Source: Eledone cirrhosa
Lineage: Eukaryota
Assembly (NCBI GenBank): GCA_964016885.1
Contig: OZ024752.1
Coordinates: 6,696,001-6,760,000 of the forward strand
DNA length: 64,000 bases
Reading direction: 5' to 3'
The position numbers and the translations under genes were made by a program. How positions within the stretch are numbered: the stretch's first letter is position 1; each line of letters begins with the position of its first letter. Below are positions 12,808 through 14,018 of the stretch, piece after piece. Below the pieces are notes generated by a model, which saw nothing but the letters and a program-made list of their open reading frames with translations, had not been told where the DNA came from and ran no database searches.

Positions 12808-14018
12808 TATATATATACACACACATATACATACATATATATATACACACACACACATATATATATACACACAAACATATATATATACACACACACACAC
12901 ACACACACACACACACACACACACACACACACACACACATATATATATATATATATATATATATATATATACACACACATATATATATATACACACACAC
13001 ATATATATATATATATATATATAATATAAGATCAAAAGATGGTTAAAGGAGTTCCATGTATTTTATTATGCGCATTTCAAAAACAAACATCATCATGCAA
13101 TAATATTTGTGTTTTCATCAGATAAAACAGGAGAACATGATATGAAGGCTAAAAAACACTTGTGGATAGTGCAGTTTTAAATCAACATATCATATATATA
13201 TGTGTGTGTATATATATATATATATATATATATATATATATATATATACACACACACACACACACACATATATATATATATATATATATATATATATATA
13301 CACACACACACATATATATATATATATATATATATATATATATATATACACACACACACACACACACATATATATATATATATATATACACACACACACA
13401 CACATATATATATATATATATATATATATATACACACACATATATATATATATATATATATATATATATATATATACACACACACACATATATATATATA
13501 TATATATATATATATATATATATACACACACACACATATATATATATATATATATATATATATATATATATATATATATACACACACACACATATATATA
13601 TATATACACACACACATATATATATATATATATATATATATATATATATATATATATATATATATCACACACATATATACACACATATATATATATATAT
13701 ATTATACACACACACATATATATATATTATACACACACACACATATATATATTATACACACTCATATATATATATTATACACACACACATATATATTATA
13801 CAAACACGCACATATATATATTATACACACACACACATATATATATATTATACACACACATATATATATATATATATATACACACACACACACACACGCA
13901 CATATATATATATATATATATTTATATACACACATGCACATATATATATATATATATTATACACACACATATATATATATATATATATTTATATACACAC
14001 ATGCACATATATATATAT
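12808..14018. repeat. (TA)n/(CA)n compound microsatellite interrupted by a unique insert of about 170 bp
   Basis: Seen directly. Confidence 0.95.
13059..13129 (-). ncRNA. Minimal type I hammerhead ribozyme (copy 1)
   Basis: Minus strand ttttat-CTGATGA-[14-bp stem II]-GAAA-tgcgca-TA^ataaaa. Stem I ttttat/ataaaa, palindromic mini stem III, AUA triplet. Confidence 0.8.

Follow-up and report, generated by a model that had tools for sequence, protein, structure and literature searches.

The 170-bp stretch at positions 13020-13190 of the Eledone cirrhosa window (the whole 64,000-nucleotide stretch of DNA that was analysed, C12:6696001-6760000) was identified with high confidence as a short arm of an autonomous Penelope-like element (PLE) of Hydra type. 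The copy in the window is most likely a lone, inert arm. We consider it likely, for the account as a whole, that the short arms were copied from a capped RNA and that a pair of hammerheads likely excises the element unit for a circular template. The more specific proposition, that the copies record two RNA templates (a capped linear RNA giving short, dead arms, and a ribozyme-cut circle giving long or master copies), is in our judgement evenly poised between right and wrong.

The complete hammerhead core and the palindromic stem III claimed for the minus strand in the initial annotation were confirmed from the sequence, and the same predicted cut was obtained (Table 1). Stem I had six Watson-Crick pairs, a G-U pair, and a U-A pair, in keeping with the 6-8 bp described before. 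Stem II had the single mismatch reported for it, C.U, but folding gave 15 pairs rather than 14. The stretch folded alone was within chance (z = -0.51 against shuffles), and an Rfam search of the window with hammerhead models returned no match at the gathering score or at E <= 10. A chance match of the motif in AT-rich DNA would agree with both of these results, and its weight was judged from the genomic copies described below.

Table 1. Positions of the features read in the window.
Feature	Position	Strand	Basis or remark
Target microsatellite (TA)n/(CA)n, 3' of the arm	12808..13019	.	
Tail-less arm, from +1 (13190) to S1 (about 13020-13024)	13020..13190	-	identity to L042; end statistics
Stem I, 3' strand	13059-13066	-	sequence
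H17 (A13067), predicted cut	13067/13066	-	sequence
8-nt palindrome AUGCGCAU (stem III)	13068-13075	-	listed with GAAA as 13068..13078
Core GAAA	13075-13078	-	sequence
Stem II, 36 nt (3 bp, C.U mismatch, 12 bp, 4-nt loop)	13079..13114	-	
Core CUGAUGA	13115..13121	-	sequence
Hammerhead stem I, 5' strand	13122..13129	-	sequence; copies; covariation
G in place of the element's C at -1, putative copy of the RNA cap	13191..13191	-	
Target microsatellite (TA)n/(CA)n, 5' of the arm, without partner arm	13192..14019	.	
Tail-less arm 2, of an older subfamily, with +1 at 25109 and core at 25040-25034	24942..25109	-	
S2-end partner arm, last 18 nt of the 86-nt tail, then (AT)n	25112..25129	+	comparison with L031

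Copies were counted by a sequence-pattern search of the 3.0-Gb assembly, and loci were fetched mostly from contigs C1-C3. The motif pattern of the window subfamily gave 15,677 exact matches genome-wide (none for the reversed control pattern), another base at 10.1 accounted for 3,847 further copies, and a looser pattern that included sister families gave 59,739 matches. The 3' strand of stem I, which the pattern left free, was paired at 6/6 positions in 167 of 175 distinct copies from the fetched loci. The palindrome was self-complementary in 170 of the 175, purine-pyrimidine alternation being imposed on it by the pattern itself. For 30 copies chosen to span five families, 96.2% of the cells paired (36-59% in slid controls), and two-sided changes were found in 8/9 stem II pairs and 2/4 palindrome pairs. 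The covariation score was reached in 0 of 500 shuffles, a figure that is no probability because the rows are related. All five families had 3 bp, a C.Y mismatch, and at least 6 bp in stem II despite differing sequences. Such covariation shows selection on the hammerhead fold and says nothing of cleavage. We held the motif to be real because of its copy number and covariation, not because of the window stretch taken alone; the compensatory changes and the pairing of the free strand of stem I make a chance match exceedingly improbable. The type I hammerhead of Penelope kind proposed earlier is thereby supported as regards its fold. The A10.1-U11.1 pair called atypical is present and is a derived state, since the older subfamilies have other pairs at this position (G-C, G-U, and A-U in subfamilies successively nearer to the window copy).

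Helix III was unfavourable within one copy and formed 8 bp between two copies at -10.5 kcal/mol; by these folding energies, the palindromic mini stem III noted before can pair only between two copies. Weak palindromes were found in two sister families (AUAUGUAU, -2.2 kcal/mol, and AUAUAUAU, -3.2 kcal/mol). At least four sister families have stem I, the core, the 8-nt palindrome, and both 3' ends in common (for example, L034:2544-2615, L051:1064-1136, L108:1489-1560, and L098:1497-1563). Their stem II sequences are unrelated, and all keep the C.Y mismatch after three pairs. Two of these families adjoin related ORFs of ~47% identity (L199 and L109).

Further motifs and repeats were observed in the window. 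A hammerhead-like motif of a different family lies at 8850-8905 on the minus strand (core at 8896), with a short stem II, AUCUU/AAGAU as stem I, and a helix III that is not palindromic, ~50 bases from a (TA)n run. A third hammerhead-like motif with the palindrome AUAUAUAU (core at 53275, minus strand) lies at 53040-53420 within inverted and direct repeats around (TA)n, and is likely another Penelope-type end. At 12717-12760 on the plus strand, 300 bases from the window arm, a degenerate hammerhead-like stretch has CUGAUGA followed by a GGUCC/GGAU hairpin and no intact GAAA. Two tRNA-like heads (24017-24078 and 26298-26361) reached the Rfam gathering score and are probably parts of tRNA-derived SINEs; together with the abundant microsatellites, they may be typical of octopod genomes. 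An 11.7-kb array at 38041-49743 contains 325 copies of a 36-bp unit that are 96% alike. Other retroelements and further hammerhead families were seen beside or inside insertions in the fetched loci (L041:790-3042, L035:5413-5790, L034:2918-4194, and L050). One of these retroelements is presumably an RTE-like LINE, and some of the motifs have CUAGU or CGCGU as helix III. Another is a PLE with a CX4CxxC linker, which is Neptune-like by the description in PMC8557442.

In 20 stretches around paired motif matches, the 170 bp was seen to form one end of an element whose ORF encodes 800 aa, which supplies the linkage to a Penelope RT/GIY-YIG ORF that the initial annotation had raised. L042, a natural copy of full length, has its parts in direct partial tandem (3' UTR, motif, tail, 5' UTR, ORF, 3' UTR, and motif), and the window arm is 99.4% identical to its downstream pLTR. 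The unit is 3.7-3.9 kb long with a 3' UTR of 1 kb, and the tail of 86 nt is above the usual 30-40. Among L042, L043, and L031, pLTRs in direct partial tandem, an inverted 5'-truncated arm, and a tail at one end were seen. The region from the cut to the end of the tail folded no better than shuffles (11 copies, z from -1.2 to +0.5). In the putative capped leader of L042 (+1 to +339), ten ATGs come before the aligned ATG of the ORF, and seven of the ten lie 5' of the predicted cut; cutting might bear on translation.

The single ORF encodes 800 aa from its ATG and has YRDD at 357 in a telomerase-like RT. The AlphaFold model of the protein had a pTM of 0.76, and its best structural matches in the PDB were TERT. 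Pfam gave 0 families for 2 and for 19 proteins, and a PDB sequence search found nothing below E 0.23. The C-terminal GIY-YIG endonuclease was recognized by motif only (LIYEC..YFG, R..H, E, and N, aligned with 18 homologues and, by eye, with rows of Fig. S7 of PMC8557442); in the AlphaFold model, this region has two strands followed by helices. DKG is replaced by DKT (SDKTN at 122), and no G.K[FY] occurs in the protein. RRLRWT or RRLRWI occupies the RWK site, so that RW is retained and K replaced; most homologues that cover the site have RWK there. The linker has CxCx5C (CNCRIKNKC at 659) and neither CX2-5CxxC nor CCHH, one Cys only is found between GIY and YIG, and CxxC (CNLC at 759) and CxH (CLH near the protein end) are present. 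Open frames of 821 codons surrounded 20 of 150 scored RT matches (counted by eye), and the family is therefore young.

By these motifs, with RWK retained in part and the named families compared by eye, the element would belong to the EN+ PLEs of Hydra type. Its hammerhead differs from that of Hydra-1_Obim, and the two are different families. Two other assignments were dropped: a MITE with inverted ends, the first guess, once ORF-bearing loci were mapped, and the Nematis clade, an early guess, on comparison with the clade descriptions in PMC8557442.

Insertions usually consist of two arms back to back in (TA)n, one with its end at S1 and the other with its end at S2, 86 nt further on. Among 201 S1 sites, 102 end in (TA)n, 94 continue into the tail, and 5 are of other kinds; the corresponding numbers for 138 S2 sites are 127 ending in (TA)n, 5 continuing into the 5' UTR, and 6 others. 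The window contains two copies, of which the second (86% identical to the first) was missed by the initial annotation. The first is an S1 arm alone, and the second is an S1 arm with 18 nt of an S2 arm. The reported embedding in (TA)n was upheld, as (TA)/(CA)n lies on both flanks and the repeat family is targeted to (TA)n with shared ends. Four contig sets mapped on the pLTR, which may include the source sample and are no record of expression, showed its presence and steps in depth near S2, S1, and +1.

The two arms of one insertion differed at 1.7% of diagnostic sites, compared with 29.8% between insertions (31 sites, 58 pairs). One haplotype was common to both arms in 57 of the 58 pairs, the exception being two separate insertions, which lends no support to a pairing of two RNAs from different loci via the palindrome. 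The arms are often not nested, with tail-only arms beside complete tail-less arms; neither arm was therefore copied from the other, and both were copied from RNA. The same observation rules out an origin of one arm by fold-back copying of its partner. The haplotype comparison covered 226 arms, 66 of them starting at +1, a few of which are misclassed old read-through arms. At 29 sites, 42 of the 66 short arms were identical to long-arm types and 53 were within one difference, and the window copy carries the commonest haplotype. No short-only haplotype cluster was found among the 226 arms, and short arms form no lineage of their own.

An independent ~170-bp non-coding retrozyme or SINE that spreads via small RNA circles would also present an intact motif and a 170-bp unit with both ends shared, and a derivation of retrozymes from pLTRs has been proposed (bioRxiv 10.64898/2026.07.22.740005). 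This is very improbable, as the mapped loci contained no head-to-tail units of 150-450 nt (one case, L041, consists of adjacent separate insertions), the ends lie at +1 and S1 and not at the cut, short and long arms have haplotypes in common, and the same sequence flanks an ORF. The stand-alone small non-coding mobile RNA family proposed in the initial annotation was abandoned, given that the same 170 bp ends an element with an 800-aa RT-endonuclease ORF and that short arms carry the diagnostic alleles of long arms.

The 5' end at +1 was examined in loci that were not selected for the motif (42 tail-less and 77 tailed arms mapped). Among the arms that extend to the window-equivalent position 13190, 14 of 33 without a tail and 17 of 37 with a tail stop at it. 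The TTC/ATA context at +1 is one that we take to fit a metazoan initiator. At -1, where the element has C, the genome-wide count was 2,412 for G and 2,696 for A or T; G thus made up 47% of 5,108 non-C cases, compared with about 23% from composition. A partner arm starting at -1 is an alternative reading for about 19 among the 100 G cases listed, and some G cases represent microhomology. G at -1 was also found where the adjoining DNA is (TA)n, which is the case for the window copy, or an unrelated partner, and on both arms in palindromic junctions.

The extra G at full-length L1 junctions has been interpreted as copying of the cap (PMC11702581). For the present element, run-off at an RNA cap is a likely explanation of both the short-arm ends and the extra G, and the 170 bp would then represent the leader of an RNA that, when copied, was capped and still uncut. 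The presence of G on both arms of some insertions points to a sense capped RNA and away from self-priming on antisense RNA. In PMC3846280, the origin of head-to-head arms was left open and antisense self-priming was favoured.

The short arms could also come from short capped transcripts of tailed pLTRs that were copied once in trans, like a SINE, and gave rise to no lineage. Such an origin agrees with the identity of the element and with the circle, and we regard it as possible though rather unlikely. Its source would be plentiful, with 12,623 matches to the tail-end motif genome-wide against 193 tail-5'UTR junctions; the Penelope promoter is internal and TATA-less (PMC2377424), and a transcript with one hammerhead would remain uncut. 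However, no short-only haplotype cluster was found, which leaves no propagation by such copying, and these transcripts would be without the RNA downstream of the priming sites that is required by the protein of PAc, a lizard (Anolis) PLE (PMC11167929).

A pattern for 5' ends at element positions 632-645 gave 811 matches, including indels. Thirty loci of that pattern comprised 8 indels and 22 true ends, which were spread over 15 positions (632-646) with 2 at the cut (635). A peak of 5' ends at the predicted cut was therefore not found in these 30 loci, and RNA left free after cutting can be no more than a rare template. Starts at or near the cut were seen only in individual long arms (L284, L241, and L263). 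A secondary cluster of 5' ends was observed at the foot of stem II (element 618-627, window-equivalent ~13074-13083), with 1,155 matches, of which ~4/5 were true ends among 100 listed (by eye); its comparison with the cut-site count is rough, as the patterns differ. The mode of this cluster is 1-2 bases into the stem, which suggests that the stem II hairpin is already folded when the enzyme arrives.

The 5' ends of long copies were mapped in 70 sampled of the 193 copies that have the tail-5'UTR junction. Nineteen start downstream of the cut region, 2 at the cut region, 9 at +4 to +118, and 40 upstream of +1 (far-upstream positions being lower bounds for diverged subfamilies), and none starts at +1. 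Stops at +1 were found in 0/40 long arms compared with 31/70 other arms (Fisher p = 3.6e-8; upper bound 7%). As the long copies run past +1, a linear RNA capped at +1 cannot be their template, and the contrast favours a long-copy template without a 5' end at +1. The five longest copies extend 1.3-1.8 kb into the unit before, without arriving at a second junction, and in none of the 70 sampled were two full units present. Of 17 ORF arms that reach upstream of the ATG, three (L031:1415, L236, and L239) start <=3 bases from S2 and correspond to almost exactly one unit length.

The changed base at -1 in read-through arms was T in 45, A in 12, and G in 6 of 63 cases (by eye), which is an ordinary mutation spectrum without a cap scar. 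The upstream and downstream repeats of the same copy differed by 1.43% (198/13,858 sites), and a copy's own repeat was nearest in 20 of the 28 copies (of 35) that had both motifs in the fetched pieces. This identity within copies fits a circle, and young multimeric sources fit too.

In the mechanism that we propose, the element protein would nick both (TA)n strands and prime reverse transcription internally on the RNA, at S1 and S2, the two sites being used on opposite target strands. On capped linear RNA, the enzyme would run off at +1 and add C opposite the cap, giving arms of 170 and 260 nt. In a pLTR-ORF-pLTR transcript, two hammerheads would pair via the 8-nt palindrome and cut, cutting being predicted only upon pairing of two copies. 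Ligation of the excised unit would produce a circle with one inactive monomer. Priming at S1 or S2 on this circle would carry cDNA across the sealed cut, through the ORF, and past +1, and the read past +1 would rebuild the partial tandem needed for the next round. For the ribozyme-cut circular RNA as the template of long copies, we see an even chance. If true, this would be in vivo evidence of an autonomous animal retrotransposon replicating via ribozyme-made circular RNA, and the circle would account both for the scarcity of cut ends and for the retention of the hammerhead in spite of it. Action as a dimer and a circular intermediate were proposed for PLE hammerheads in 2014 (PMC4209133), and a circular template also appears in PMC6765202. 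S1, S2, and the two arms found here match the two internal priming sites and the nicking of both strands described for PAc in vitro (PMC11167929).

Other routes to the long copies are possible. For a subset of RNAs, cDNA that had arrived at the cap could move to the homologous 3' pLTR by strand transfer, or copying could jump from one end of a cut linear RNA to another. In the first of these, which may be likened to LTR elements, or with read-through of longer arrays, the element and its short arms would be the same and the hammerhead would have no part in making the template; its retention would be due to protein binding, RNA pairing, decapping, or turnover. Such a hammerhead-free origin appears doubtful to us. 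It would agree with 5' ends that do not pile up at the cut, and with PAc, in which the hammerhead was dispensable in vitro (mutants inserted unaffected), the motif cut only in the presence of protein, and no reads started at the cut (PMC11167929). Minimal PLE hammerheads also cleave poorly in vitro, even as dimers (PMC4209133). This weak cleavage, PAc insertion without cleavage, and the weak palindromes of two sister families argue against the circle. However, strand transfer with equal odds at each arrival predicts ~18 stops in 40 second arrivals, where 0 were seen, and the read-through arms have no G scar at -1. Two-full-unit copies were also absent among the 70, and the core is common to five families with differing stem II, although it was fixed by the search pattern.

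Several known systems resemble the present element. The Hydra clade of EN+ PLEs, which includes Hydra-1_Obim of Octopus bimaculoides (Craig et al. 2021, PMC8557442), likewise has DKT and no GxKF/Y, a CxCx5C linker without CCHH, CxxC and CxH, a (TA)n target, a hammerhead near the 3' end, and inverted truncated copies. The N-terminal and RT sequences of Hydra-1_Obim and the present element are collinear by eye. In contrast, the present unit of 3.7-3.9 kb with its 1-kb 3' UTR exceeds the 'generally under 3 kb' given for Hydra elements, RWT or RWI stands in place of RWK, and the linker has ~70 extra residues. The 86-nt tail and the clear pLTR tandems are unlike the Hydra families described in that paper, and the hammerhead differs from all Hydra rows in its file S2, which have GUH triplets and a shorter stem II.

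Metazoan PLE hammerheads of the minimal and palindromic-helix-III kinds (Cervera and De la Pena 2014, PMC4209133) are, as here, of type I, located in pLTRs, with a palindromic helix III and a long helix II, and occur in thousands of single or opposite-strand copies. In contrast to these, stem II of the present motif reaches 15-16 bp and keeps a C.Y mismatch behind its first 3 bp, A9 is followed by no bulge, and most families have A-U or G-U at 10.1-11.1; the triplet is AUA, and the palindrome is 8 nt long. The number of motifs is about 60,000 here and 9,000 in Xenopus, and the ends of the copies here supply genomic evidence on the template.

In PAc, the Anolis Poseidon element (Frangieh et al. 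2024, PMC11167929), two internal priming sites bound the tail, both target strands are used, the target is AT-rich, and uncut RNA templates short products, all as found or proposed for the present element. PAc belongs to another clade, and its hammerhead overlaps the ORF start, whereas 214 nt separate the present one from the first aligned ATG downstream. A multi-copy mRNA template is assumed in that paper; here, two full units were present in none of the 70 copies sampled. Non-LTR retrozymes (Cervera and De la Pena 2020, PMC7229834; Li et al. 2026 bioRxiv) also have a type I hammerhead, low GC, a size of 170-400 nt, and very high copy numbers. They are ORF-less head-to-tail tandems (PMC7229834), whereas the present unit is single or back to back and is the end of a coding element; the present element is not a retrozyme.

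The function of the PLE hammerhead was called unclear in PMC8557442, and the available text of a repeat annotation of Octopus vulgaris (PMC13282606) mentions neither ribozymes nor Hydra. No report of the present family or of such an analysis of its ends was found in the literature searched, which lay outside subscription journals, Repbase, Dfam, and bioRxiv supplements. The motif itself is ordinary: such hammerheads were described from Penelope pLTRs in 2014, and a Hydra family of octopus has been published. Lunse et al. in 2016 reportedly described dimer-cleaving PLE hammerheads, which may already include similar variants. The value of the present element lies in the record of a young and very abundant family for which the start site, both priming sites, and the predicted cut are placed to the base, and whose end statistics make the long-proposed question of a circular template directly testable.
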